A stretch of 24,555 nt of DNA from Acaryochloris thomasi RCC1774. Lineage in GTDB: Bacteria; Cyanobacteriota; Cyanobacteriia; Thermosynechococcales; Thermosynechococcaceae. Within the stretch, counting starts at the first letter, position 1. Each line of letters starts with the position of its first letter. The stretch spans positions 1 to 24,555 of the forward strand of contig NZ_PQWO01000039.1 in the NCBI RefSeq assembly GCF_003231495.1, given 5' to 3'. Below the pieces are notes generated by a model, which had not been told where the DNA came from, made no database searches, and was given only the letters and a program-made list of their open reading frames with translations. Position numbers and translations under genes: made by a program. Below, one piece after another: positions 1 through 24,555 of this stretch.

Positions 1-127
1 CCTATACCTAGAAAGGAATGTGTCAATTTCGCTGCCTCGAAAAATGCGAAAATTAGCGCCTGAAACCTATACCCTCAAAAAGTTACAGCCTTAGCGTTGT
101 TTTCTGTTCCGATGTACCCTAAACACC
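1..127. mobile_element. One arm of a ~480-bp non-autonomous Tn3-family-like miniature element (the other arm is 24203..24555 if the sequence is circular)
   Basis: The reverse complement of 1..127 aligns with 24203..~24335. The first 42 nt are identical and the rest is roughly three-quarters identical by eye. No ORF. The outer tip at 127 abuts TATTT (128..132). Confidence 0.6.
86..127. repeat. Tn3-family-type terminal inverted repeat, copy 1 (tip at 127, element interior to the left)
   Basis: The reverse complement is GGTGTTTAGGGTACATCGGAACAGAAAACAACGCTAAGGCTG, identical to 24203..24244. It shares the Tn3 IR signature (GG tip, GGAAC.GAAAAC core, ACG.TAAG inner end), as recalled from GGGGTCTGACGCTCAGTGGAACGAAAACTCACGTTAAG. 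Confidence 0.75.
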
Positions 128-132
128 TATTT

Positions 133-170
133 CATCAGCACTATCGATCACATTTGATTTTGATGAGTAG
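133..170 (+). other. Orphaned 3' tail (about 12 codons plus stop) of the gene interrupted at 24202
   Basis: Deleting the element and one TATTT copy joins ...CCT ATT T to CA TCA GCA CTA TCG ATC ACA TTT GAT TTT GAT GAG TAG. The join is in frame, giving ...SPISSALSITFDFDE*. Confidence 0.55.
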
Positions 171-213: not shown

Positions 214-510
214 TCAAGCAGCCATAGGCATTTCCTCCACTGGTCCTGCTCGTGGGTACCATTCTTCAATCGTCTCCTTCCACTCAGCATTGAGAACCTT
301 TGTTCTCACTTGAAGCAACAAATGAGCACCCTTGGGTGTCCAGCGCATCTGTTGCTTTTTCTCCATCCGCTTAGCAATGATCTGATTGACAGCAGACTCC
401 ACAAACCCGGTTGAAATCCTTTCACCACAACGATATCGCTCTCCATAGTTTTGGATAAACCCCTGGTTGTTGTGGATGTACACCCTGAATTCTCGGATCG
501 CCTTGACCAT
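214..510 (-). pseudogene. DDE transposase, C-terminal ~98-aa fragment (ISKra4-like by remembered motifs)
   Basis: ...NYGERYRCGERISTGFVESAVNQIIAKRMEKKQQMRWTPKGAHLLLQVRTKVLN... is a C-terminal transposase signature. No N-terminal catalytic region is present. The fragment ends at ~510, where a resolvase fragment begins. Confidence 0.6.
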
Positions 511-1025
511 CTTGCTCGCAGCTCGATAAGCTCAGGGGCTGTGACAAGATTTTTCAGGAGAAGCGCAGTGGTGTTTCAAACCAACGGCCTCGGCTTAAGG
601 CTTGTCTGGAGTATGTCAGGGATGGAGACACGCTGGTAGTGACTCGGTTAGATCGGCTGGCCCGCTCTACGCTCCACTTGTGCCAGTTGGCAGAGCAATT
701 GAATAGCAAGCAGGTCCATCTACAAGTGCTTGACCAGAGTATTGATACTGCTGATGCAACTGGTCGGTTGCTCTTTAATGTGCTGGGAGCGATCGCACAA
801 TTTGAAACTGAAATCAGAGCAGAACGCCAGATGGATGGAATCAAAAATGCGAAAGTTCGTGGGGTCAGTTTTGGGCGTAAGAATAAGTTGAATCAACAGC
901 AGTGTTCCGAGCTACGGCAAAGGCGAGAGCAGGGGGAGCTGATCCGGGTGCTCATGAAGGATTACGGTCTTGCTAAGGCCAGTGTCTATCGATACCTCAA
1001 TGATGCCGAAGAGGGATGTGACTGA
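507..1025 (+). pseudogene. Serine recombinase/resolvase lacking its N-terminal ~20-25 residues (catalytic Ser region missing)
   Basis: The frame is open from 507: ...QLDKLRGCDKIFQEKRSGVSNQRPRLKACLEYVRDGDTLVVTRLDRLARS, then ...GAIAQFETEIRAERQMDGI..., then a C-terminal HTH (LAKASVYRYL). The usual MxxGYxRVSTxxQ start is absent. The ORF track reports only the 639 GTG-initiated part. Confidence 0.8.
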
Positions 1026-5810: not shown

Positions 5811-6038
5811 TCAGAGTGGGAGCTGCATCAACTGCTGAAGAATTGCTTTCATATCAATGAGCTCAGGTTTTCTACTAAACTCATAGCGGCCATAGAAGTT
5901 GATATGCTGCCATGCCACTAGCGACACGAGTCTAAGCATCGCAATCCTGGCGGCATTCCCCTGGCTTTCACTGCAGAGAAATAGGTCAGATAAGATGGGC
6001 ATGTTGTAGTAGATGATGCAATTGATCAGCAGGCAATA
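5811..6038 (-). pseudogene. Tn3-family transposase (TnpA), extreme C-terminal ~75-aa remnant
   Basis: The extended frame reads YCLLINCIIYYNMPIL...LRLVSLVAWQHINFYGRYEFS. This matches the conserved Tn3-family C-terminus (LL.N.I..WN ... LSP..W.HIN..G.Y.F). Nothing upstream of it is present. Confidence 0.65.
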
Positions 6039-6095: not shown

Positions 6096-7658
6096 TCACG
6101 AAATACGCGCTTTAAATCCCATTTTTACTGAAGAATTTGTGATATCGTAAATTTCTAAATTTGATAACGTACCATCCCACCATCGACTGTCAGGTGTAGT
6201 ATTGTCATTAAATTGATCATTATTCCCGGCATAGAAAAGATCTGTAGCATCACCTTCCCAATTCCCCTGCTTTTTTTCTAAATCATATCTGCCATCTGCT
6301 TGAACAAGTGAGCATTCAAAATGATACTTAGCTGTCATTTGTTCATGATTGTTGCTGCCGTCTATATCAACATGCCAAATAGCTATTCCTGCAGAAGGAA
6401 TATTTTTATCACGTCCACTCTGCTGCCGATTTTCAATTATAAAATATTCACGTTCATTTTTTCTGTGTATATAGAAATTATTTGTTCCAGATTGAATTAC
6501 TAAATTACTATCTTCTTCAACATTCAATATATTATTAGACCAACCAGCACGGTATTTGAGGTAGGCGCAAACTTGACTTGGATTTTTGTCATCAATATCT
6601 AAGCTATTACTCATCAAGCAAAAAGCACCAACACCAAATGAGGGTGGTTTAAATTCATCATATAGATCTGGAAAATTGCATATTAAATGTCCTGTTTCAT
6701 GACAAATCGTCCCCAATAATAATTGATCACTAATGTTTACTACGATATAGTCATTAGCTATTTTTTCTGGACTCAACATATATTCCTTTGAAAAATAACC
6801 AGTATGAGGGAATAGACCATCTACTCCTAATTGGGTATCATGATCGAAATCGCCTGCATATAAGATACTAATCGCATGAACGTAATTTTCATCGTCTACA
6901 GATAAACTAGAAAAATTAAAATCATTCAATTCTAAATATTCTAAGGCTTCAATTACTAATTCTTCTGAACGAGTACCGTATGGCTGAGTTTTATCTGAAT
7001 AGTATGACTTATTTTGTTTAGCTGTATAATACGGAGCAATAACATTCTTATATTTCAATTTACCATCTGAGTTTTCTAAGAAATAATCGCAAACAGAGCC
7101 ATTATTTCCAAAACCCGTATAACCTCTCAAATTAAAAAAATCATCAACTTCTGATGTAGTAATAAAGCTAGGAATAGATTCGTCAGGAAAAGCAACTACA
7201 ATACATAATCCTACAATATCGCCAACTACGTGGTGCTTGTCTGAATCTAACAGCGGTGCTGAATCTGACAAATTCGAGGATATCTGATCAGCATTAATTT
7301 GCTCGTATCTTTGTAGCCAACGAGGTTTTACTAAACTATCTACTGAGTTTATAAAATCATCTTGTTTCTGTTTTTCATGTATGAGTCTCAAGTTTTTTGC
7401 AAAGCTTAGATTTGTGGCTTCTCTTTCTTTGTCAAGAATAATTCCACTTGGAATAAGTTTATCAGAAGTTTCATTAAGTCTTGCATATTGATAAGTTCCA
7501 GTATATTGATCCTTTATTACTCTAAAACCATCAACCGTTTCGAATATAGTGTAATGGTGATTTCCCCAACCAATTACATCGAATGAATTACCATCTGGCT
7601 GACTAAATGCTAATTGTCGTCCAGCAAAAGGAAATGATTTAATATACGGTTTGTCCAT
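6096..7658 (-). CDS. M6 (immune inhibitor A-like) family zinc metalloprotease domain protein, no obvious signal peptide
   Basis: HETGHLICNFPDLYDE fits the HExxH...PD.Y signature of InhA/M6 peptidases. The protein is 520 aa and its N-terminus MDKPYIKSFPFAGRQ is not signal-like. Confidence 0.6.
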   Translation of the reverse strand: MDKPYIKSFPFAGRQLAFSQPDGNSFDVIGWGNHHYTIFETVDGFRVIKDQYTGTYQYARLNETSDKLIPSGIILDKEREATNLSFAKNLRLIHEKQKQDDFINSVDSLVKPRWLQRYEQINADQISSNLSDSAPLLDSDKHHVVGDIVGLCIVVAFPDESIPSFITTSEVDDFFNLRGYTGFGNNGSVCDYFLENSDGKLKYKNVIAPYYTAKQNKSYYSDKTQPYGTRSEELVIEALEYLELNDFNFSSLSVDDENYVHAISILYAGDFDHDTQLGVDGLFPHTGYFSKEYMLSPEKIANDYIVVNISDQLLLGTICHETGHLICNFPDLYDEFKPPSFGVGAFCLMSNSLDIDDKNPSQVCAYLKYRAGWSNNILNVEEDSNLVIQSGTNNFYIHRKNEREYFIIENRQQSGRDKNIPSAGIAIWHVDIDGSNNHEQMTAKYHFECSLVQADGRYDLEKKQGNWEGDATDLFYAGNNDQFNDNTTPDSRWWDGTLSNLEIYDITNSSVKMGFKARIS

Positions 7659-7697
7659 TGCAGTGCTCCAATAGATTTATGAAAATCAAACAGTATT

Positions 7698-7875
7698 CTA
7701 GCTTACAAAATTAGCCTTGATATAAGTCTCATCCACTTTCCATGAATCGTTGGTAGGCTTGAGTTGTGGACGAGCCCACTCATCAAGTTCAGGGCCATAA
7801 TGGAGAACCCATCGATTAATGATGCTGTGATCTACCTCCAAACCTCGCTCAAGCATCATCTCCTCCAAGTTCATG
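7698..7875 (-). pseudogene. IS6-family transposase, N-terminal ~55-aa fragment
   Basis: NLEEMMLERGLEVDHSIINRWVLHYGPELDEWARPQLKPTNDSWKVDETYIKA matches the IS6/IS26-type N-terminal HTH plus the SWxVDETYIK motif. It then stops (NFVS*). It is below the ORF-track size cutoff. Confidence 0.7.
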
Positions 7876-8629
7876 AACTTCCTGTAAAAATCAGCCTTCC
7901 CATATACACGTACAGATAGTATTCTTTCTCGGTGTTTCAGATTAATCCAAATCTGTACTTTGATCTCACCATCAGTTAAACTATCAAGATCAATATTATT
8001 GCCCCTCCAACAATCACGGTTTGTATCTCTAATTAGGAGACCATCATACTTATCTATTTTCTGACCTCAGCTCTCTCAAAACCAGCTCACTAGGAATATT
8101 TCACCTCTTATTTCTATATTCTCTAAATCAATCGTGATTGAAAATTCGATACCATCAATTTCTATTTTCATGATCGATATCTTTAAGAATCAATCTAGAC
8201 GTATTTTATTTGATTGCTTAATTTTACAAAAAAGAAAACATGCAAACGAATTCATGTAACTACAAATTTAAGCGCAGAAATATTGTCAACCTTCGCTAGA
8301 AGAGCAAAACTTATCCGCACAAAAAGATTGCTACGCAACAGGTTTAATATTTAATTTTTGAAATCCTAATCCAAGATAGCTATTTTTATTTACTAGAATC
8401 CCCACCTAAAATAGGCATACCATAACAAAACCCCTCTTACACCATGAAAACAGAAAAAGTTAATAGAATCAGAATTCATATTTTCAACACTTAACAAATT
8501 AAATACTTCCCTTAAAATATTCTGAACAAATAAAATTATTAGTTTTGGCAATACTGCTTCTCTTTTTCTGTTCCGTCAGTTCCAGATATAAAGCTAGCCA
8601 CAGCAGAAGCCTTGCCCCTGAAACCATTT

Positions 8630-11600
8630 CTATCGGCTGAAAGAGGGGCCATAATGGTCGATGGACTGTTTTACTTGATACCGATACTCGAATGATTGAG
8701 CAGCAGTAGCGATGTCTTGATAACCATCTTTCGTGACTTTCATCTGCCGCACTTCTAAGTAGCCTCCTGCTGAACGCAGGTCAAGCATCTCTAGAATTGG
8801 TTCCTCTATTTCATTTTGCCAAACTCGCAGCTCTGTCCCATCTAGTCTCAATAGATATCGCTCACCCCGATAAACATATGCACTGCCCTCTTGAGATCCC
8901 GCCTGCTTAAGTATTGTCAGAACATTTGTATGTAGCTCATAGGCCATCGTTAAATCTTGCAGTCTTGATTGCACCTGAGACTCTTGTAGCTGCCTAGCCT
9001 TCTCTCGCATCAGCTCCGTCTGTGGATCCTCATCCCACTTCTGGTAAGCATCCATTTGCCCTTGCCATCCTTGTAACTGTCTCTGTGCCTTCCTTAGAGT
9101 CCGCTCCACTTGGCTCAACTGCTGCTGAGATTCGTGCAATAGCTGCCGCTTTGCCTCTATCACCTCCGGCCTTTCTCCACTCCAATTAAATAAAGACCGC
9201 TGTGGCCCCATCTCCTCAAGTTCCTGCTGCTGCTCCCGACAGTCAAACACTAAATCAGATCGCTGAACCGATAGCTGACTCACCCTCTGCTTTAATCTCT
9301 CACCCACAGCCAGATCTGGCTGTTCAGGACGGTCTTGCGCTAACCATGCCTTCACCTCCTGCTGCAGCTTCAGTAGCTCGGTATCTCTTCTCCTCACCGG
9401 AACCTCAATCAAATCCTGAGCATTCTCCTGACCTCTGGAAAACTGGGCACTCAATCCCAACCCTGTACGGTCAGTCGTCACAATCTCTAACTCAGACTTA
9501 GCTCTAGAGAGCGCTACATAGGTCTGCTCTTTACCAGGACTCTTCCCCGGTGCCCAAATCGCCTCCTGCGCCGTCCAACCCTGCGCGGCATACACCGTCC
9601 GGCAATAGGCATAATCAACATGCACTAATTGGTCAGGGGTCAGCCTCTCTATCTTCCCCTTGGTATTGATGGAGATCGTGCCATCAGGGTTGAATGAATC
9701 AATCGTGAACAGCTGGCCATTGATCTGCCCCCACTCTCGATGGTTCCGAGTAAACCGCAGACGGTCCCCTACTCGTAGCTCAATCTCTTGAGCAGAAAAC
9801 ACCTCTCTATCTTTGTACTTATCAATAGGGCAATCTTTGACCTCACCAAAGCGGTCCTGCAGCTTCAGTCGGTTGGGTTGAACATCAACCACCCGATAGT
9901 AAGGTTCAGGAAACTGCTTCGTAGAACGCCGAAACCGCACCACATCTCCGACCTCATAGCTATAAGCCTGAGCGATCGCATTTTTATCTAGATTCTTCGG
10001 ATGCAGCATCTCAATCACTTGAGCCTCAGTTCCCAGCGTCTGACGGTCGATATAGGCGGCTCTGATTTGATGAGTAATGTCTTGGCGGTCCTGATTGGTA
10101 TCACAGATGATCAAGGTCTGTACCTGTCGCTCATGGGGTCGGGATAGGTACCGCTTAGCAACACTATGATTACGGGCCTTCAATACTGGAATCTCTTTGA
10201 CGCAGCCATGACCATCCAAGATCTCTAGCGCTGCTTGAGACTGCTGCTCTGCTGCTAGATCAACTGCTTCTTTAAGCTGCGGTGTCACCTGCCTTAAGTT
10301 CTCATCAATGGTTACTGTTTTGAGCTGGGAACGTTCCTGCAAGAGTCGGAATGGGGCACCCGCCTGCACCGCACTGAGCTGCTTGGTATCGCCCACTAAG
10401 ATCAAGCGACTACTGAGGTCATTGGCTTTCTCAATCAGCTTCGCCATCTGCTGAGTCGAGAGCATTCCGGCTTCATCAATCACTAGGATCTCGTCTCGCT
10501 GTAGCTGCTTATTAGGTATCAACAGATAGCGATCCACCGTACTTGATTGCATTCCTGCTTCTTGTCCTAAGACTTCAGACGTTGCTGCACTGGGTGCAAG
10601 TCCTCTCAATCTTTGTTGAGCATTTTCATCTAGTACATCTCTAAAGGCTGATAGGGTATAGGTCTTTCCAACTCCCGCATTCCCCTGCAGCAAAGTGATC
10701 TGGTCGGTGCTCGTTGCCATGTGCAGCAGTCCAGCCGCTTGACCTTCGTTTAGACCTTTCTCTTGAGCGATGGCATTGACCTGCTCTGGTGTCACTAAGG
10801 CTTCTCTAGATTCCTGTCCATTATTCGCAACCTCAAGGATCAATTGCTCTCGCTGAATCGCTCTGTTAGTCGTTAGGCGTCCATCGTCCGTAGAAATCAA
10901 TTCCTCAGACTGCTCCAAAGCTTGCTCTATCTCTACTGGAGAATAGAATGCTTGAGCATGACGTAGGCAGTCCTGCAAGAGTCGCGGTCGGGAGACGGCA
11001 ACTTGATGCGCTGTAGCGCTCTCAATGGCAGCTTCAATCACCGTCTGTATGCTGCCGGGATGTGAGTCTCTTGTATAAGCTCGTTCTAAGTCTTGTTGCG
11101 GTTGCGGATGAATAATATTGAGTTCAGCAGATATTCTTTTCCAGCTCTCTCGCTGCAGTTCATGATCTGCGGGTGTTAGTTTATGAACCTTGGCCGTTCG
11201 ACTCTCTAAACAAGCAATCTGCTTTTGATGCTCCGTCGCTTGCTCTAGCTGAATATTCTGTTGCTCTAAGTATGCTCGGATATCCTGCCGTCTGCTGCTG
11301 AACGATTCTAGTTGCTCTGGTTCGTAGCCTCGAATCTCAAAGGTATGCTCACCCGTCCAGTCAATCTCAAAGCCTTGCTTATGTAATTGGTGAGCAAAGG
11401 AATGGTCATAGTAAGCACCGATAGTCTTCTTCTGATTGAACAGCTCTCGACTATCCAAAGTTCTCGATTTACCATCGACACACAGGGTCTGATTAAGAAT
11501 CACGACATGGGTATGCAGCTGCGGCTCTTGGTTGCGATTATCATCATGCTTAAATAGGGCAAACTGACCTTGCTTCGTTTGCTCACTGATCACCTGTCCC

Positions 11601-11983
11601 TGCTGCTTCACCTGAGCAAAGATGCAGTGCTCCTCAATATAGTTGACGGTGGCAGTGACAGCTTGTCGGTGAGCTTCTAGAACTCGTGGGTCTTGATCTA
11701 CCAAGGCTTTGAGCGAAGCAGACTTATTAGCTGAAAGCGTAATATCCCATCCGGCTCTGCTGTTCTTCTGCTGTCGTCTAAGAGCTTGGCCTTGATTGTC
11801 TTTTCCATTACAAGCTTGCTGCCATTGCTCAGCAGTGATTCTTCCTGTTAGTCCTTGATGCTCTGAGAATTTGCCTTGCCATTGAGAGTTCTCTAGTCCA
11901 TCTCCTTGGCTGTAGTAATTATCCTTGGAGTGATAGGTCTCCAAGGCTTTCGCATTCATCGGTTTGCTGATGCTAGCAACCAT
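8630..11983 (-). CDS. MOBF-family conjugative relaxase fused to a RecD-like helicase (TrwC/TraI type), with a long C-terminal coiled-coil extension
   Basis: N-terminal relaxase motifs: YHSKDNYY (catalytic Tyr cluster), SQWQGK...GLTG, ITLSANKSASLKALV, and the three-His motif FKHDDNRNQEPQLHTHVVILN. Helicase motifs: LLQGNAGVGKTY (Walker A), ILVIDEAGML (Walker B), LVGDTKQLSAVQAGAPF, YAYCRTVYAAQGWT, TYVALSRAK. Confidence 0.9.
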   Translation of the reverse strand: MVASISKPMNAKALETYHSKDNYYSQGDGLENSQWQGKFSEHQGLTGRITAEQWQQACNGKDNQGQALRRQQKNSRAGWDITLSANKSASLKALVDQDPRVLEAHRQAVTATVNYIEEHCIFAQVKQQGQVISEQTKQGQFALFKHDDNRNQEPQLHTHVVILNQTLCVDGKSRTLDSRELFNQKKTIGAYYDHSFAHQLHKQGFEIDWTGEHTFEIRGYEPEQLESFSSRRQDIRAYLEQQNIQLEQATEHQKQIACLESRTAKVHKLTPADHELQRESWKRISAELNIIHPQPQQDLERAYTRDSHPGSIQTVIEAAIESATAHQVAVSRPRLLQDCLRHAQAFYSPVEIEQALEQSEELISTDDGRLTTNRAIQREQLILEVANNGQESREALVTPEQVNAIAQEKGLNEGQAAGLLHMATSTDQITLLQGNAGVGKTYTLSAFRDVLDENAQQRLRGLAPSAATSEVLGQEAGMQSSTVDRYLLIPNKQLQRDEILVIDEAGMLSTQQMAKLIEKANDLSSRLILVGDTKQLSAVQAGAPFRLLQERSQLKTVTIDENLRQVTPQLKEAVDLAAEQQSQAALEILDGHGCVKEIPVLKARNHSVAKRYLSRPHERQVQTLIICDTNQDRQDITHQIRAAYIDRQTLGTEAQVIEMLHPKNLDKNAIAQAYSYEVGDVVRFRRSTKQFPEPYYRVVDVQPNRLKLQDRFGEVKDCPIDKYKDREVFSAQEIELRVGDRLRFTRNHREWGQINGQLFTIDSFNPDGTISINTKGKIERLTPDQLVHVDYAYCRTVYAAQGWTAQEAIWAPGKSPGKEQTYVALSRAKSELEIVTTDRTGLGLSAQFSRGQENAQDLIEVPVRRRDTELLKLQQEVKAWLAQDRPEQPDLAVGERLKQRVSQLSVQRSDLVFDCREQQQELEEMGPQRSLFNWSGERPEVIEAKRQLLHESQQQLSQVERTLRKAQRQLQGWQGQMDAYQKWDEDPQTELMREKARQLQESQVQSRLQDLTMAYELHTNVLTILKQAGSQEGSAYVYRGERYLLRLDGTELRVWQNEIEEPILEMLDLRSAGGYLEVRQMKVTKDGYQDIATAAQSFEYRYQVKQSIDHYGPSFSR

Positions 11984-17349: not shown

Positions 17350-17991
17350 ATGACTGAGTTTATCGGCCTCATCTCACAAAAAGGGGGAGTTGGTAAAAGT
17401 ACGATGGCCCGTTTGATCGCGCGGGAATATGCAGCAGCGAAGTGGGATGTCAAAATCGCGGATCTGGATACCTCCCAAGGTACAAGCACGGAGTGGAAGC
17501 TCCGCCGTGAGGAAAATGGTCTTAAGCCAGAAATTGCTGTCGAGCCGTTCCGAAGCGTGAAGCAGGCACTCAAACATGCTTCGACCTATGACCTCATAGT
17601 ATTTGACGGTCCACCACATTCGATGGCGGGCACTGTAGACATTGCTCAAGCTTCAAAGCTAGTTGTATTGCCCACAGGTCTCTCATTGGATGATCTTCGG
17701 CCTACAATCCGCCTAGCTCATGAGCTAGTAGAAAATAGCATCGATCAAGAAAAGATCGCCTTGGCTCTCTGCAGAGTAGGAGATCGAGAGAATGAAATAA
17801 AAGAAGCACGAGCCTACATAAAAAAAGCAGGCTATACCCTACTGCAAGGCTCTATCCCAGAGAAAACAGCCTATCGGAGGGCAAGTGATGACGGTAAGGC
17901 CGTTTCTGAAGTCACATTCCTATCCCTCAAAAAACGGGCAGAAGAAGTTGCCCAAGATGCCATCAACTTAATGTCACGCGAGGCCACCTAA
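17350..17991 (+). CDS. parA: ParA-type partition ATPase (small, type Ib-like)
   Basis: Deviant Walker A LISQKGGVGKST, then DLDTSQG and VFDGPP motifs. 213 aa. Followed immediately by a small RHH protein. Confidence 0.85.
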   Translation: MTEFIGLISQKGGVGKSTMARLIAREYAAAKWDVKIADLDTSQGTSTEWKLRREENGLKPEIAVEPFRSVKQALKHASTYDLIVFDGPPHSMAGTVDIAQASKLVVLPTGLSLDDLRPTIRLAHELVENSIDQEKIALALCRVGDRENEIKEARAYIKKAGYTLLQGSIPEKTAYRRASDDGKAVSEVTFLSLKKRAEEVAQDAINLMSREAT

Positions 17992-18255: not shown

Positions 18256-18275
18256 TAGAAGTTTTCACAGAAATC

Positions 18276-18331
18276 ATTTTTAGCGAAAGAGCGTTTTAGC
18301 GAAGTTACTAAAACGCTCTTTCGCTAAAAAT
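18276..18331. repeat. Perfect 24-bp-stem inverted repeat (8-nt loop) carrying TAGCGAA motifs; a bidirectional terminator and/or a second partition site
   Basis: ATTTTTAGCGAAAGAGCGTTTTAG cgaagtta CTAAAACGCTCTTTCGCTAAAAAT, located between convergent genes. It overlaps the stop of the 124-aa ORF by 1 nt. Confidence 0.7.
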
Positions 18332-18705
18332 CATTCGATATTGCCAAAGCCTCTCACCTGCGCTCTCCGTTTGCGGATAGGTAACTTTTTGTCATCAGGT
18401 CTAGGTGCTTCAAGGGTGAAGGCTCCCATCTGCTCGTCAATGGTCAAGGCCATGACCATTTGCTGTTCTGGATCATGTGCCTCAAATTGCGCTTGTAAAC
18501 TTGATAGGCCACTATCCTCGATAAAGGTAGAGACTTGAGACGCTTTGAGAAAACGAGCTTCTAGATCACAGAACTCCGACTCAGGATAAACGTTAACCTC
18601 AAGTACACCAGGTCCCTTCTCTGACGAAAGCTCAAAATAATAGGACTTTAGATCTGGTAGTTCATCAGATATCTGTTGAAGGAGTTGCTGCTCGTCACCC
18701 GACAT
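18331..18705 (-). CDS. Hypothetical acidic 124-aa protein, third gene of the antitoxin-PIN operon
   Basis: It starts 26 bp after the PIN gene stop on the same strand. No recognisable motif. Basic C-terminal tail KKLPIRKRRAQVRGF. Confidence 0.45.
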   Translation of the reverse strand: MSGDEQQLLQQISDELPDLKSYYFELSSEKGPGVLEVNVYPESEFCDLEARFLKASQVSTFIEDSGLSSLQAQFEAHDPEQQMVMALTIDEQMGAFTLEAPRPDDKKLPIRKRRAQVRGFGNIE

Positions 18706-19707: not shown

Positions 19708-20274
19708 ATGGATTTTGAAATTAAAAAGCCTAAGAGTAAGGCGGCTCGAAAACAAAATGGAAGTGGAAAGGCGAGGGTGCTTTCTAGCGATGAGGCTAGG
19801 GAGCTGTTTGAAGGGGGGTTTGTCAGGGACCGCGATCGCGCTTTGTTTGGAATCTGCTATTTCTGTGGGTGCCGCATTGGGGAGGCGCTGCAGTTGAAAC
19901 GAGAGAATATTGATCTAAAGCTGGGGGTGATTACGTTTCCCAAGGGGATTACGAAGGGGAAAATTCAGACAAGGCAGTTGGAGGTTGGGGCGACGCTGTT
20001 GCAGTTGCTGGAATGGTATGAGGAGATGCCGTCGCAGGGGTACATTTTTCCGGCTCATGCGAAGGCAGTGAAGAATGGGTATTTATCGACCGTGCAGGCG
20101 CATCGGATTTTAAGGGCGGCTTGTGACACAGTGGGGTTGGAGGGGGTAAGTACACACTCTTTTAGGAGAAGCTATATTACGGGACTGTGGAAGCAGAAGA
20201 TGAGTCCTTGGAAAATTAAGCAGTTCTCTGGGCATAAGTCGATGGCTTCGCTGATGGAATACCTAGAAGCTTAA
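19708..20274 (+). CDS. Small tyrosine recombinase (phage-integrase family catalytic domain only)
   Basis: Catalytic residue contexts: CGCRIGEAL (Arg), HSFRRSYIT (His-x-x-Arg), GHKSMASLMEYL (His ... Tyr). Only 188 aa. Confidence 0.8.
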   Translation: MDFEIKKPKSKAARKQNGSGKARVLSSDEARELFEGGFVRDRDRALFGICYFCGCRIGEALQLKRENIDLKLGVITFPKGITKGKIQTRQLEVGATLLQLLEWYEEMPSQGYIFPAHAKAVKNGYLSTVQAHRILRAACDTVGLEGVSTHSFRRSYITGLWKQKMSPWKIKQFSGHKSMASLMEYLEA

Positions 20275-20538
20275 GTCAGAGGACAGTACAGTTAATCAAC
20301 GAAAATAGATTAAGGAAAGTTTGCATAACTGTGAATAGATTCTCTGATAGCTAAGAGGATATCTATAAAATTTTCATTCACAAATCAATCTAAATATATT
20401 TTTCTAGAGATAATTTACGAATCAATATTTCATGTTATATGTAATATCAGGTGGGAAAACGCAAAAAACTGGAGTAAGTTTAATCCAGTCAATCTAATAT
20501 CCATAACACTGAACCTCATAGTACATTAGCAATTTACT

Positions 20539-20577
20539 AGACTGTATATTTAATTCGTACTATTAAATATACAGTCT
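20539..20577. repeat. 15-bp perfect AT-rich inverted repeat with a 9-nt loop
   Basis: AGACTGTATATTTAA ttcgtacta TTAAATATACAGTCT, in the AT-rich spacer between the recombinase and the pentapeptide gene. Confidence 0.5.
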
Positions 20578-20873
20578 AATAAATTTATTTTCTGTTGAGG
20601 GTATTTTTGCTAGAAAAATGCAGTATTGGTAATAACAGCAAATATTCATATTCTTTAGTGTTTAAAATTACTACAGAAGCATAATAACTAACCCACAGAG
20701 AAAAGATAGGAATAGAAATTTTTTTGCTTTTTGACCTGCAGTTGAAATAGTGAGCCATACTTTTCGCTGCCAGCATTAAGGATGTGTCCACATCAAATTT
20801 ATAGAGCGCAAAGTATTTGATTGGTAAGTCCTCAAAAGACTATTTCAATTAAGTTTACTTAAAGGAACCTCAT

Positions 20874-22718
20874 ATGTCCGGTAAAAGAAAGACATTGAAG
20901 ATAATTGAAAGAGGAAGCATCTGGGCCAGTATCTTTTTAGTCTTATCAGGTGCTATAGCTGGTGCATCAATATCTATACTCCGAAAACAACCTAATGAAA
21001 ATCATAATCCTTGGTTCTACATAATTGGAGCTTTGGCAGGCTTAGCATTAGCTTTAACTGGATTTCTACTTTATAAGCATCCATGGTCAAAGTGGTCCGG
21101 GTTCTCTTCAAAAAAACTTTGGGACTGGCTAAATTTGCTAATTGTACCCATTATTTTAGCCGTTGGTGCCTTCTTTTTTGACTTTCAGTCTGGCATACGA
21201 AATAGTATCATTATTGAGAAGCAAAATCAACAAGAAGCACTTAAAAACTATTTCTCACAAATGAAAGATTTGGTGAGTACTGAAAGAATAAATAAAGGCA
21301 GAAACTCACAGAATACAGATAAAATCGCTGAATCTCTTACATTGGCTGTTTTGAATGAGCTTAGTGGCGACCAAAAAGGTCAGATACTAAAATTTCTTCA
21401 CAATATAAATAAAACGAGGATTAATAAGGATAAAGATTGTATTCTTGAAAAAAGAATCAGTGTATTATCAGAAATATCTCTTGAATCAGCTAATCTTGCA
21501 AAAGCTAACTTAGAGAATATGGATCTAAGTTGTATCAATCTGAAAAAATCTAATCTTACAAAAGCAAATATTAAAGGAGCTAATTTAAAAGGGGCAAATA
21601 TTGAAGGGGCTAATCTCGAAGGAGCTTCTCTAGAATTAGCAAATCTAAATGGAGTCATACTCAATAAAGAGACAAACATTGATTCTAAATGGTCTTCAGT
21701 AGTCGACATTTTTAGTCAACTCAACACAAATAAGGAATATGAAGGTTACGATCTTAGAGATGCTCATTTAGCTGGATTAGACCTTAAAAATGCCAATCTA
21801 AAAAATTCTAATTTAAGAAATACTAATCTTGAAAATGTAGATCTAAGTGGAGCAAACCTAGAGGGAGCTGATTTAAGAGGGGCCAATCTTATAAAAGCAA
21901 ATATTAAAGATACGAAGATTAATATTGATACGAAGTTAGACCCAAAAGCACATTTATATTGGAGTCTTATAAATATACGAGAAATAGGTCATAACTTAAA
22001 TGAGTACAACTTGAAAGAAGCTAATTTGCGCAGAGCTTATTTAGTCCAATCAACATTGAATTTTGCCAACATGGAAAAAGCCGATTTGAGAGATTCATTT
22101 CTAAGATCTTCCAACTTGGATTATTCCAATTTACGAGAAGCAGTTCTCTCTAGTGAAAACTACATAACTGACTTAATTGAGGTTTCCATGATTGAAGCAG
22201 ATCTAAGTCACGCCAAGCTTGAGAATGTAATCCTCACTGGAAGCGTGCTACTGAAAGCAAACTTATACAAAGCAAATCTTAATTCAGCAGTTATAATTGG
22301 TAGTAATTTTAGGCTAGCAAACTTAGAACAAGCAAAATTGGAAAAAGCAAACTTAAGAGGAAGTAATTTATCTCAAGCAAATCTATTTAGTGCACAGATG
22401 AAATTAGCTAACTTGAGAAATACCAACTTCAAAGGAGCAATTCTCGATAGCTCTAACTTACAAAAAGCACAGCTTCAAGAGAGTGACCTGAAAAGAGCAT
22501 CATTGAGAGGAGCATCATTAAAAGGGGCAGCTCTAAGAGATGCCGATATGAGAGGAGCTGATCTAAGAGCTGCTGATTTAAGTGAAGCAGATCTTAGAGG
22601 GGTTGATCTAAGAGACGCCGATCTAAGAGGGGCTAATCTAGAAAAAGTAATTATGAATGAAGTAACCCAAATTTCTGCTAATTATTATGCTAAAGATAAG
22701 TACTTAGCTATTCAATAA
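20874..22718 (+). CDS. Membrane-anchored pentapeptide-repeat protein (3 N-terminal TM helices, linker, several pentapeptide blocks)
   Basis: TM segments IWASIFLVLSGAIAGASISIL, WFYIIGALAGLALALTGFLLY and LNLLIVPIILAVGAFFFDF. Long runs of A(N/D)LxG-type pentads follow (ANLKGANIEGANLEGASLELANL ... ADLRGVDLRDADLRGANL). Confidence 0.9.
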   Translation: MSGKRKTLKIIERGSIWASIFLVLSGAIAGASISILRKQPNENHNPWFYIIGALAGLALALTGFLLYKHPWSKWSGFSSKKLWDWLNLLIVPIILAVGAFFFDFQSGIRNSIIIEKQNQQEALKNYFSQMKDLVSTERINKGRNSQNTDKIAESLTLAVLNELSGDQKGQILKFLHNINKTRINKDKDCILEKRISVLSEISLESANLAKANLENMDLSCINLKKSNLTKANIKGANLKGANIEGANLEGASLELANLNGVILNKETNIDSKWSSVVDIFSQLNTNKEYEGYDLRDAHLAGLDLKNANLKNSNLRNTNLENVDLSGANLEGADLRGANLIKANIKDTKINIDTKLDPKAHLYWSLINIREIGHNLNEYNLKEANLRRAYLVQSTLNFANMEKADLRDSFLRSSNLDYSNLREAVLSSENYITDLIEVSMIEADLSHAKLENVILTGSVLLKANLYKANLNSAVIIGSNFRLANLEQAKLEKANLRGSNLSQANLFSAQMKLANLRNTNFKGAILDSSNLQKAQLQESDLKRASLRGASLKGAALRDADMRGADLRAADLSEADLRGVDLRDADLRGANLEKVIMNEVTQISANYYAKDKYLAIQ

Positions 22719-23124: not shown

Positions 23125-23180
23125 CAGTTCCCCCTCTTATATTAACTTTTCCGTAAAAGTTAATATAAGAGGGGGAACTG
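23125..23180. repeat. 56-bp perfect palindrome (26-bp arms, 4-nt loop)
   Basis: CAGTTCCCCCTCTTATATTAACTTTT ccgt AAAAGTTAATATAAGAGGGGGAACTG, located 70 bp upstream of the 23251 ORF. Confidence 0.8.
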
Positions 23181-23250: not shown

Positions 23251-24255
23251 GTGATGAGTGATAAGCAAGAGTCTTCTATTTCTCCTAATACATCTACAAA
23301 AAAAGTAAATGATCTGTCTTTAATTTATCCTCGTCCTGATTTAGCTTTGCCAGATGATATAAAGAACTTTTTGTTTCAGCTTTTTTCTGACTGCAACAGG
23401 AAAATATCGTATCAATTTTGCACCTTCCCAAATGCTCATGAAGAGTCTCTAGATCTAATATTTATATCTCACTTTGCATCTATGCAGGGAGCAATTAAGT
23501 TTGGTTCACATTGGACATTAAAAATTGATGCTCACTTTATTGGAGGAGGTAGACATTACCGGACATGGGAGGTAGCAGATATTGGCTTGATGGTAATGTT
23601 CCGAAAGAATGGCAAGATAACTCGTAGCAAATTAACCTTTCTACAATCCAAAAAACTGTACGCTAGTACTCTTAAGTATAAGCCTTCTGATCCTTACCAC
23701 CGCTCTGGGCTAGGAAGATTATTAGTAACGGAAGAAGAGCATAGAGATCTAGTAGAACCAAAAACTATCAATTTTTCTGAAAATTCAAAATATAAAGCAA
23801 TAAAATCAAATAATGATCAGCATATTGCGATGAGTGAATTCTCTATCGAAAACAAAATAACGCTTCACTATCTATTATATAATCCTTCAATCATACCTTG
23901 GACAATTAAATCTCCAATTGAAGAATTACCTTATGAAAACAAAAACCTAGTTGGCTGTAGAGTTATTCCTAAACCAATAATGGATAACATGCTTATAGAT
24001 AAAAACAATGATTATTCACCATCTTATAAAGATGTAAAAGAAAAATTTAAATTGGATCAATCAAATAGAGAGTCTAATGCAGGTTGGAGAATGGAGGATT
24101 TTATCTGCGATTTATTTATACAAGGTGAAGAAGGTTTAGTTGATGATTCTCCTAACTTTGAAACTATGCTTAGTATAATGAGTCGGAAAACAAGTCCTAT
24201 TTGGTGTTTAGGGTACATCGGAACAGAAAACAACGCTAAGGCTGCAGCGCTTTGA
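23251..24255 (+). CDS. PD-(D/E)xK nuclease-like hypothetical protein, 3' end interrupted by the Tn3-type miniature element at 24202/24203
   Basis: NAHEESLDLIF ... EVADIGLMVMFRKNGKITRSKLTFLQSKKL gives an E ... D-x22-QxK arrangement with hydrophobic strands after the D and before QxK. The last 17 residues (WCLGYIGTENNAKAAAL) are encoded by the transposon IR. The likely true start is the ATG at 23254. Confidence 0.55.
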   Translation: MMSDKQESSISPNTSTKKVNDLSLIYPRPDLALPDDIKNFLFQLFSDCNRKISYQFCTFPNAHEESLDLIFISHFASMQGAIKFGSHWTLKIDAHFIGGGRHYRTWEVADIGLMVMFRKNGKITRSKLTFLQSKKLYASTLKYKPSDPYHRSGLGRLLVTEEEHRDLVEPKTINFSENSKYKAIKSNNDQHIAMSEFSIENKITLHYLLYNPSIIPWTIKSPIEELPYENKNLVGCRVIPKPIMDNMLIDKNNDYSPSYKDVKEKFKLDQSNRESNAGWRMEDFICDLFIQGEEGLVDDSPNFETMLSIMSRKTSPIWCLGYIGTENNAKAAAL

Positions 24256-24555
24256 CAGCATAGGTTTCAGGCGTTATTTTTCGCCTTTTTCAGAGCACCT
24301 AAATCGATGTATCTCTTTCTATGTATAGGTTTGAGAGAAATAACTTTTTCAGTATTGAGCTTATAAACCGATGAAAGCCTTACAGGTATTGTCTTTCATC
24401 GGTTTCCGTTACAGATGAAGTCATAGTGTGTTGTTCCAGAGTAGGTCTACTACTCCAGGCCAAATACTAAAAATGCTGAATTACGAGTCACAGTCTGTTG
24501 CTTCTGATGAGAATGCTCTACTCACTGATCACTTTCTTTAGTGCGCTCATTGCGA
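24203..24555. mobile_element. Other arm of the ~480-bp Tn3-family-like miniature element (tip at 24203, interior to the right)
   Basis: It begins with the 42-nt IR GGTGTTTAGGGTACATCGGAACAGAAAACAACGCTAAGGCTG, preceded by TATTT. Subterminal ATAGGTTT motifs are repeated. There is an internal 13-bp-stem hairpin at 24365..24405 (AAACCGATGAAAG ... CTTTCATCGGTTT). No ORF. Confidence 0.65.

Follow-up and report, generated by a model that had tools for sequence, protein, structure and literature searches.

Transposons of the Tn4430 type encode a transposase (TnpA) together with a tyrosine recombinase, TnpI, that acts at an internal resolution site (IRS). In Tn4430 the IRS is made up of inverted core motifs and accessory direct repeats (PMC2847244). 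Miniature elements bounded by Tn3-type repeats have been described as TIMEs (PMC4133298), and two of these, IS101 and TIME244, carry res sites (PMC13367494). The locus studied here can be compared with both kinds of element. It consists of the two ends of a single Tn3-family insertion, which lie at the opposite ends of a contig of 24,555 nt (the whole stretch of DNA that we analyzed, hereafter the window). Most likely, the transposon is of full length and an ordinary representative of the tyrosine-recombinase branch of the Tn3 family, carried by a cyanobacterial plasmid, and the contig ends result from assembly. Whether the element turns out to be full length or miniature, it is of a known kind.

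The window is one whole contig, as the record of its protein P0001 on a contig of 24,555 bp shows; it has a G+C content of 42.7% and no terminal overlap of at least 10 nt. In a repeat scan, its longest inverted repeat pairs positions 24203-24329 with positions 1-127. The outermost part of this repeat, 24203-24244 (GGTGTTTAGGGTACATCGGAACAGAAAACAACGCTAAGGCTG), is the exact reverse complement of 86-127 (42/42), as the sequence-only reading had reported. The imperfect similarity that it had described further inward also exists, and over the full 127 nt the complementarity is 105/127 (83%) without gaps. An exact inverted match of 42 nt within 24.5 kb is far beyond chance. Both tips face outward, and the plus-strand pentamer TATTT touches each of them. 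The features of the two ends are as follows.

24198 to 24202, plus strand: left copy of the target-site duplication, TATTT, abutting the left tip; removal of the element and one copy brings back the reading frame of the interrupted ORF.
24203 to 24244, plus strand: left terminal inverted repeat (IR), 42 bp, of Tn3-family type (GGTG...GGAACAGAAAACAACGCTAAGGCTG), 42/42 with the reverse complement of 86-127.
24203 to 24337, plus strand: left subterminal arm, about 130 nt, 83% complementary to 1-127.
1 to 127, plus strand: right arm, made up of precisely the terminal 127 nt of the element and located at the start of the contig.
86 to 127, minus strand: right terminal IR, 42 bp, the complement of the left IR.
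128 to 132, plus strand: right copy of the target-site duplication, TATTT, abutting the right tip.

The assignment of the repeat to the Tn3 family is borne out by related elements, since the same core occurs at the ends of elements that encode DDE_Tnp_Tn3 transposases. Tn3-family IRs measure about 38-48 bp and have a conserved inner core; here, the IR is perfect over 42 bp and has the core GGAACAGAAAACAACGCTAAGGCTG. Two ATAGGTTTSAG-like motifs lie in the left arm, about 58-68 and 120-130 nt inward of the tip. This arm shares 76-85% identity with those of two relatives, one on a Logan contig (L027) and one in Acaryochloris marina (L005). If it is read across the contig ends, the right arm is 81.6% identical to the L027 arm over 136 nt. 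In the relatives as well, the two arms of an element resemble each other, over about 75-135 nt.

The insertion interrupts a gene. An ORF on the plus strand (23251-24255) runs from the plasmid backbone into the left IR and stops at 24253-24255, and the remainder of the gene is found at the other end of the contig.

23251 to 24202, plus strand: first part of the target gene (316 codons, N-terminal), whose ORF continues into the IR in the assembly.
133 to 170, plus strand: C-terminal 13 codons of the target gene (SSALSITFDFDE), separated from the rest by the insertion and followed by a stop at 168-170.

The first Ser codon of the displaced tail is 132-134, and its first base is also the final base of the target-site duplication. 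When we excised the element and one TATTT in silico, joining 24202 to 133, we obtained a protein of 329 aa ending in ...SRKTSPISSALSITFDFDE*. The closest homologues that we checked (13 sequences with 62-71% identity, from Trichocoleus, Leptolyngbya, Myxacorys and metagenomes) end in ...SPISSAL/SAALSITFD(F/I)..., nearly all of them in ...SPISSALSITFDFEE, and the restored tail SSALSITFDFDE agrees with them. Only a duplication of 5 bp, the length made by Tn3-family elements, restores both the frame of the target ORF and its conserved C-terminus. The sequence-only reading had suggested looking for related plasmids with an uninterrupted target site, and such a site does exist in a JGI contig (L029), where it reads AGTCCAATCTCATCAGCA against the restored AGTCCTATTTCATCAGCA and is collinear with the restored target at the nucleotide level. 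Because excision restores a 329-aa ORF whose last 13 residues match the homologues, the two ends belong to one insertion with a 5-bp duplication, as originally proposed. And because the tail of the target gene is encoded at the opposite end of the contig, the backbone is circularly permuted around the insertion and closes into a circle through the element.

As it stands in the contig, the insertion exchanges the last 13 residues of the target for 18 residues encoded by the IR. The target family (about 325 aa) corresponds to no Pfam or NCBIfam model; it has 182 matches, most of which are cyanobacterial, while a few come from elsewhere, for example Paraglaciecola. A strong intergenic hairpin with perfect arms of 26 nt (23125-23180) immediately precedes the target gene. 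On L029, a gene for a 1,019-aa Tn3-family transposase (6217-9276) lies about 1.8 kb downstream of the uninterrupted target gene, and the ends of that element have no similarity to those of the focal element.

The backbone itself is plasmid-like. It encodes a MobF/TrwC relaxase (8630-11983), ParA (17350-17991), two PIN toxins and an integrase, and it is, in patches, about 78% identical to Acaryochloris plasmids of 16-28 kb. The only Tn3 transposase sequence in the window is, as had been noted before, a stub at 5811-6038 on the minus strand, which covers Pfam DDE_Tnp_Tn3 positions 340-389 of 389 (E 4.5e-10); tblastn of the window with three full-length relatives found no other. We considered this 75-aa stub as a remnant of a partner transposon and rejected it, as it belongs to a different subgroup (26% identity over 54 aa to the TnpA of L012, a relative described below), and no IR of the focal type is recognizable beside it. 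The tyrosine integrase of the window (19708-20274) was likewise rejected as the cognate recombinase, being unrelated to the transposon recombinases.

Several other repeats occur in the window. An inverted repeat of 23 nt (191-213 and 1052-1074, 22/23), separated from the Tn3-type insertion by only 59 nt, encloses a C-terminal fragment of an ISKra4-family transposase (214-510, minus strand) and a 5'-truncated serine resolvase (639-1025, plus strand); together they look like a decayed composite element. Strong intergenic hairpins are found at 18272-18335 (28-nt arms, 96%) and 20531-20585 (24-nt arms, 96%), and a gene for a 614-aa pentapeptide-repeat protein (20874-22718) is the source of a 15-nt periodic family of direct repeats in the repeat scan. 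An Rfam search of the window returned no RNA family.

What lies between the left tip and the end of the contig is a segment of 353 nt. Inward from the left arm, it contains the following features.

24365 to 24406, plus strand: hairpin with a 13-bp stem (AAACCGATGAAAG...CTTTCATCGGTTT), between the arm and the accessory site.
24419 to 24427, plus strand: accessory motif resembling a half-site (AGTCATAGT), located between the core and the tip.
24436 to 24458, plus strand: palindromic core CCAGAGTA-GGTCTAC-TACTCCAG, a putative tyrosine-recombinase (TnpI-like) resolution core, found as a motif match.
24518 to 24555, minus strand: 3' end of a tyrosine recombinase gene (VAMSALKKVISE), with the stop TAG at 24518-24520 and the reading frame open at the contig end.

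The sequence-only reading had described the element as lacking any ORF. The inner end of the 353-nt segment is instead the end of a tyrosine recombinase gene: positions 24553-24518 (minus strand) encode the last 11 codons and the stop, AMSALKKVISE*. The codon before these reads xTC, which would be Val if x is G, and it is completed only if base 24555 joins base 1 or else by the true next base. The tail fits the consensus of the recombinase family, VA.xALxx[LIV].... It agrees at 8 of 12 positions with the equally long tail VAMQALKKLTSG of P0124, the recombinase encoded on L027; other tails of the family are MVAHQALDLLIQSSE on plasmid pMB04, EVAKYALGVIQGAEQG on L011 and VVAKRALSDLVK* on L012. 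Moreover, the recombinase end of L027 is collinear with all 353 nt, from the recombinase tail through the spacer, the core (24/24), the accessory motif and the arm to the IR (41/42). A related contig, L026, additionally holds an HTH gene and the remainder of the recombinase gene. By comparison with these relatives, the left segment is the recombinase-side end of an element of the full-length type, with the contig end cutting 12 codons into the gene.

The pattern CCRGAGTA-N7-TACTCYRG matches the window once, at 24436-24458, with 0 matches expected, and it occurs in one copy each in L001, L006, L008, L010 and L011. The window core shares an 18-nt block with the site on pMB04, which is located about 70 nt downstream of the recombinase gene of that plasmid. 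It lies in the same orientation relative to the recombinase gene as the identical core of L027 (about 455-480), and the site on pMB04 (L023, about 6955-6980) has the same half-sites around an inverted 7-nt spacer (GGTCTAC vs GTAGACC). The core adjoins the recombinase gene in L011, pMB04 (L023), A. marina pREB4 (L024) and L027, at about 50-70 nt downstream of the stop. An accessory motif (TCAKAGT) is found at the same spacing, and always on the tip side, in L011, L006, L010, L001, L023 and L027. Inverted motifs with an accessory half-site, the architecture of TnpI/IRS-type sites, are conserved across seven elements, and we infer that the core is a putative cointegrate-resolution site. The hairpin at 24365-24406 is not formed by the homologous stretch in L027 and L005. 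When the element was scanned for promoters and terminators, no signal exceeded the expectation from shuffled sequence.

What kind of transposon do these ends belong to? A scan of GTDB genomes with a degenerate IR core found 13 loci, mostly in Acaryochloridaceae, Thermosynechococcaceae and Leptolyngbyaceae. Two of the elements bounded by the focal IR core are long: L012 (315-5673, 5,359 bp) and L011 (2494-7247, about 4.75 kb). Each encodes a TnpA of 987-994 aa (DUF4158 and DDE_Tnp_Tn3, E about 1e-140), an HTH/zinc-ribbon protein and a Phage_integrase tyrosine recombinase. The element on pREB4 shares this layout and has an IR of another subtype. The recombinase family is present on 57 PLSDB plasmids, which are cyanobacterial throughout among the matches listed.

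There are also shorter relatives of about 1 kb that have no ORF and retain both arms and the core site, namely L006 (1840-2866, with the target-site duplication ATCAT) and L001 (10001-11029). Part of the L006 element recurs in L008 and part of the L001 element in L015 (9001 onward); the hosts are MAGs of Acaryochloridaceae and Thermosynechococcaceae as well as Acaryochloris plasmids. The miniature relatives L006 and L010 part from the autonomous L011 exactly at the core site, and beyond the core these miniature relatives have no L011-like recombinase 3' end. This suggests that modules may have been exchanged at the core.

The focal subtype itself is rare in the collections that we searched. 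Queries of 480 nt and 127 nt against PLSDB (blastn) gave distant IR matches only; among the 13 GTDB loci, the subtype is absent except for a solo end in A. marina; and two scans of JGI metagenomes gave 0 loci and 1 unrelated locus. The solo end measures about 180 nt and lies beside an ABC transporter gene on the A. marina chromosome (L005; the locus recurs in L016-L020). Apart from this solo end and the ends on L026-L028, PLSDB, the GTDB representative genomes and the JGI metagenomes contain no second copy of the subtype. Searches of PLSDB, GTDB and JGI recovered neither a full-length copy of the exact focal subgroup nor a sequence that bridges the 24555/1 junction.

We consider it rather probable that the ends belong to a longer transposon, the interior of which was lost in assembly, and not to a miniature element of 480 bp. 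The plasmid would be a circular MobF/ParA replicon of about 24 kb from an Acaryochloris-like cyanobacterium, opened within a single Tn3-family transposon that had entered a conserved gene of 329 aa at its 3' end, with duplication of TATTT. In the cyanobacterial Tn3 subgroup to which it belongs, the order is tip, tnpA, HTH/zinc-ribbon gene, tyrosine recombinase gene, core with accessory motif, arm of about 130 nt, and tip. Of this transposon, the contig would contain 353 nt on the recombinase side and no more than the terminal 127 nt on the opposite side. The missing interior would amount to about 4-5 kb, comprising the recombinase, HTH and tnpA genes, and was most likely repeated elsewhere in the sample; a de Bruijn assembler run at k=127 would have been unable to place it, and 24555/1 would not be a physical junction. 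The transposon would move by replicative (paste-and-copy) transposition, and its cointegrate would be resolved at the core by the tyrosine recombinase, as in Tn4430. The single insertion, its 5-bp duplication, the circularly permuted backbone, the family of the ends, the conserved core and the recombinase stub are shown by the sequence; the missing interior, its multi-copy state and the role of the core in cointegrate resolution are what we infer.

Several observations point to an assembly break. First, SPAdes and metaSPAdes use k values of up to 127, and a contig next to a repeat retains exactly k nt of the repeat. With its length of precisely 127 nt, the right segment argues for a contig broken inside a repeated, longer transposon; k=127 was presumably the setting used for this contig. 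Second, the contig ends in a recombinase gene that continues in the relatives, and the left segment is collinear with L027, which argues that an interior is missing. Third, the window is a whole contig without terminal overlap, which argues for the same. Fourth, counted back from the contig end, the final 127-mer begins at 24429, in the gap that separates the accessory motif from the core, 7 nt outside the latter. This position favors the model with a missing interior, since a second copy with the same recombinase side and another arm would converge there; the 1-kb relatives L006 and L010 also part from L011 at this core. Finally, for a closed circle to start exactly at a deletion junction would be a coincidence.

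Some results stand against a missing interior. If the element were fully repeated, the left side should have been cut at 127 nt as well, and the 353 nt that are present require another copy that differs in the left 226 nt. No transposase in a set of 5.8 billion proteins ends in the frame-0 translation of the right arm (frame 1 of this arm is also open). Other copies were not found in PLSDB, GTDB genomes or JGI metagenomes. A further candidate argument, that the arms encode a TnpA C-terminal tail (..VISLKPIP..) whose LRP motif would prove the continuity of the junction, was rejected, as the mismatches show no codon-position bias; in the same protein set, the only protein with a ..VISLKPIP.. tail is a 30-aa ORF of the A. 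marina solo end.

One could also argue that base 24555 is joined to base 1 after all, a reading that we regard as possible if rather doubtful. The plasmid would then be a closed circle of 24,555 bp with a non-autonomous, TIME-like derivative of 480 bp, as the sequence-only reading had it. The derivative would have arisen by an internal deletion between imperfect short repeats, CATTGCGACCT in the recombinase tail and CTTTGAAACCT in the right arm of relatives, and would retain the two IR arms together with the accessory site, the core site and 12 codons of the recombinase gene as a stub. The transposase for its mobilization and the recombinase for its resolution would both be encoded elsewhere and act in trans. 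Neither a cognate tnpA nor a cognate recombinase gene is present in the window, including the 480 nt held in the contig, which is in line with this reading.

The contig ends in ...CATTGCGA and starts with CCTATACC..., and the joined junction would read ...CTCATTGCGA followed directly by CCTATACCTAG.... Across it, the recombinase homology to L027 runs on for 3 nt (CCT) and the arm homology for 1 nt (A), giving a microhomology of 4 nt, ACCT, which is typical of real deletions and would arise by chance with an estimated probability of about 2%. ACCT lies inside an imperfect 11-nt repeat, which in L027 reads CATTGCTACCT in the recombinase tail and CTTTGAAACCT in the arm. Base 1 would complete the Val codon of the recombinase tail (GTC), and the right arm aligns for 9 nt across the junction with L005 and L027, weakly (6/9). 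Precedents exist both in the ORF-less relatives of about 1 kb that have both arms and the core (L006, L001) and in the TIMEs with resolution sites (IS101 and TIME244; PMC4133298, PMC13367494).

Against a direct join, the contig boundary must coincide with the deletion junction. The probability of this is about 1 in 10^4 for an arbitrary start. With the start set by k=127, counted from the tip, the deletion must have left exactly 127 nt, for which the probability is about 1e-2. The lack of terminal overlap speaks against it, as does the fact that PLSDB, GTDB and JGI yielded no second copy and no sequence across the junction. The known miniature relatives, too, diverge from L011 at the core and do not continue into an L011-like recombinase 3' end. 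A TIME is recognized by several copies or by demonstrated mobilization in trans by a matching transposon of the host; PLSDB, the GTDB genomes and the JGI metagenomes contain no second copy. Of the circular plasmid proposed earlier, the circular permutation of the backbone around the insertion is supported, and the direct join of 24555 to 1 in a closed circle of 24,555 bp is not supported in that form. The 480-bp miniature element is likewise not established, given that the 353-nt segment is collinear with a full-length recombinase end and its gene runs off the contig.

An unresolved cointegrate, in which the 24-kb backbone sits in a larger replicon between two copies of the element and each end abuts a different copy, is quite improbable. 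Replicative transposition of Tn3-family elements gives the order IRR-TSD-target...target-TSD-IRL, exactly the arrangement seen here, and would predict the same contig. A cointegrate also needs the element at least twice, in line with a break at the tip (for the scheme, see PMC13367494). On the other hand, the backbone has its own genes for a MobF relaxase, ParA and PIN toxins and resembles free Acaryochloris plasmids of 16-28 kb, the element carries a putative resolution core, and the topology is without direct support. Finally, two unrelated elements, or an internal slice of a larger replicon with noncontiguous flanks (the scenario that the sequence-only reading had named as its own refutation), have nothing in their favor and can be set aside as extremely improbable, since both tips carry the same pentamer, the window is a whole contig, only one insertion into one site gives a precise in-frame restoration of the conserved C-terminus, and the empty site in L029 contradicts it as well. 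The weights that we give to the longer transposon, to the direct join and, for the rest, to a cointegrate or another topology are rough and assume a de Bruijn assembler.

If the transposon is indeed longer, the true plasmid may measure about 29 kb and may carry an active element. Before the 24555/1 junction has been checked, the record should not be taken as a closed plasmid of 24,555 bp, nor the element as a 480-bp MITE. The Tn3 subgroup with tnpA, an HTH/zinc-ribbon gene and a tyrosine recombinase is widespread on cyanobacterial plasmids and has arms of about 130 nt, and its conserved palindromic core appears to be the point at which relatives exchanged modules and gave rise to the ORF-less derivatives of 1 kb. 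This is of use for the annotation of Acaryochloris-type plasmids and will not surprise specialists.

We see it as a tentative, less favored possibility that the locus is a putative cyanobacterial TIME, formed by a microhomology-mediated deletion that kept both 127-nt arms and a TnpI-type resolution site. If so, trans-acting proteins could carry out both steps of replicative transposition, and the element would be the first TIME of the tyrosine-recombinase branch, as far as the TIME literature that we examined goes. Together with L006 and L001, it would then suggest that cyanobacterial plasmids carry a family of miniature, resolution-competent Tn3 derivatives.

How does the locus compare with known systems? 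With transposons of the Tn4430 type it shares IRs of about 40 bp with the core GGAAC...GAAAAC...ACG.TAAG, an AT-rich target duplication of 5 bp, relatives that combine a DDE_Tnp_Tn3 transposase with a tyrosine recombinase, and a putative site of two inverted half-sites with a directly repeated accessory half-site (PMC2847244). It differs in the dimensions of this site: the motifs of Tn4430 are 14 bp with a 4-bp spacer, whereas the focal core has arms of 8 nt and a spacer of 7 nt. Unlike in Tn4430, the focal core lies downstream of the recombinase gene and next to one arm, the subgroup has an extra HTH/zinc-ribbon gene between tnpA and the recombinase gene, and the two arms are alike over about 130 nt.

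The locus resembles TIMEs in its Tn3-type IRs, its 5-bp direct repeats, its location on a plasmid and the retention of a putative resolution site (PMC4133298; PMC13367494). Only if 24555 joins 1 does the likeness extend to the absence of a transposase between the IRs and to a size of up to about 0.5 kb. The TIMEs known so far come from proteobacteria, and their res sites are for serine resolvases, whereas the focal element, considered as a TIME, would have a site for a tyrosine recombinase and a stub of the recombinase gene, and its size hinges on the join between the contig ends.

A third comparison is with Tn3-family elements on cyanobacterial plasmids, such as pREB2, pREB3 and pREB4 of A. 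marina, pMB04 of Acaryochloris 'Moss Beach' and plasmids of Nostoc, Pseudanabaena and Picosynechococcus. These elements differ from the focal one in their IR tips and arms, which vary by subgroup (GGCCTTCC..., GGGGTATGAC..., GGGGTTCAGGG...). They share with it the recombinase family and the order of recombinase gene, core, accessory motif, arm and tip, and the closest end is that of the Logan contig L027, with its nearly identical IR and identical core.
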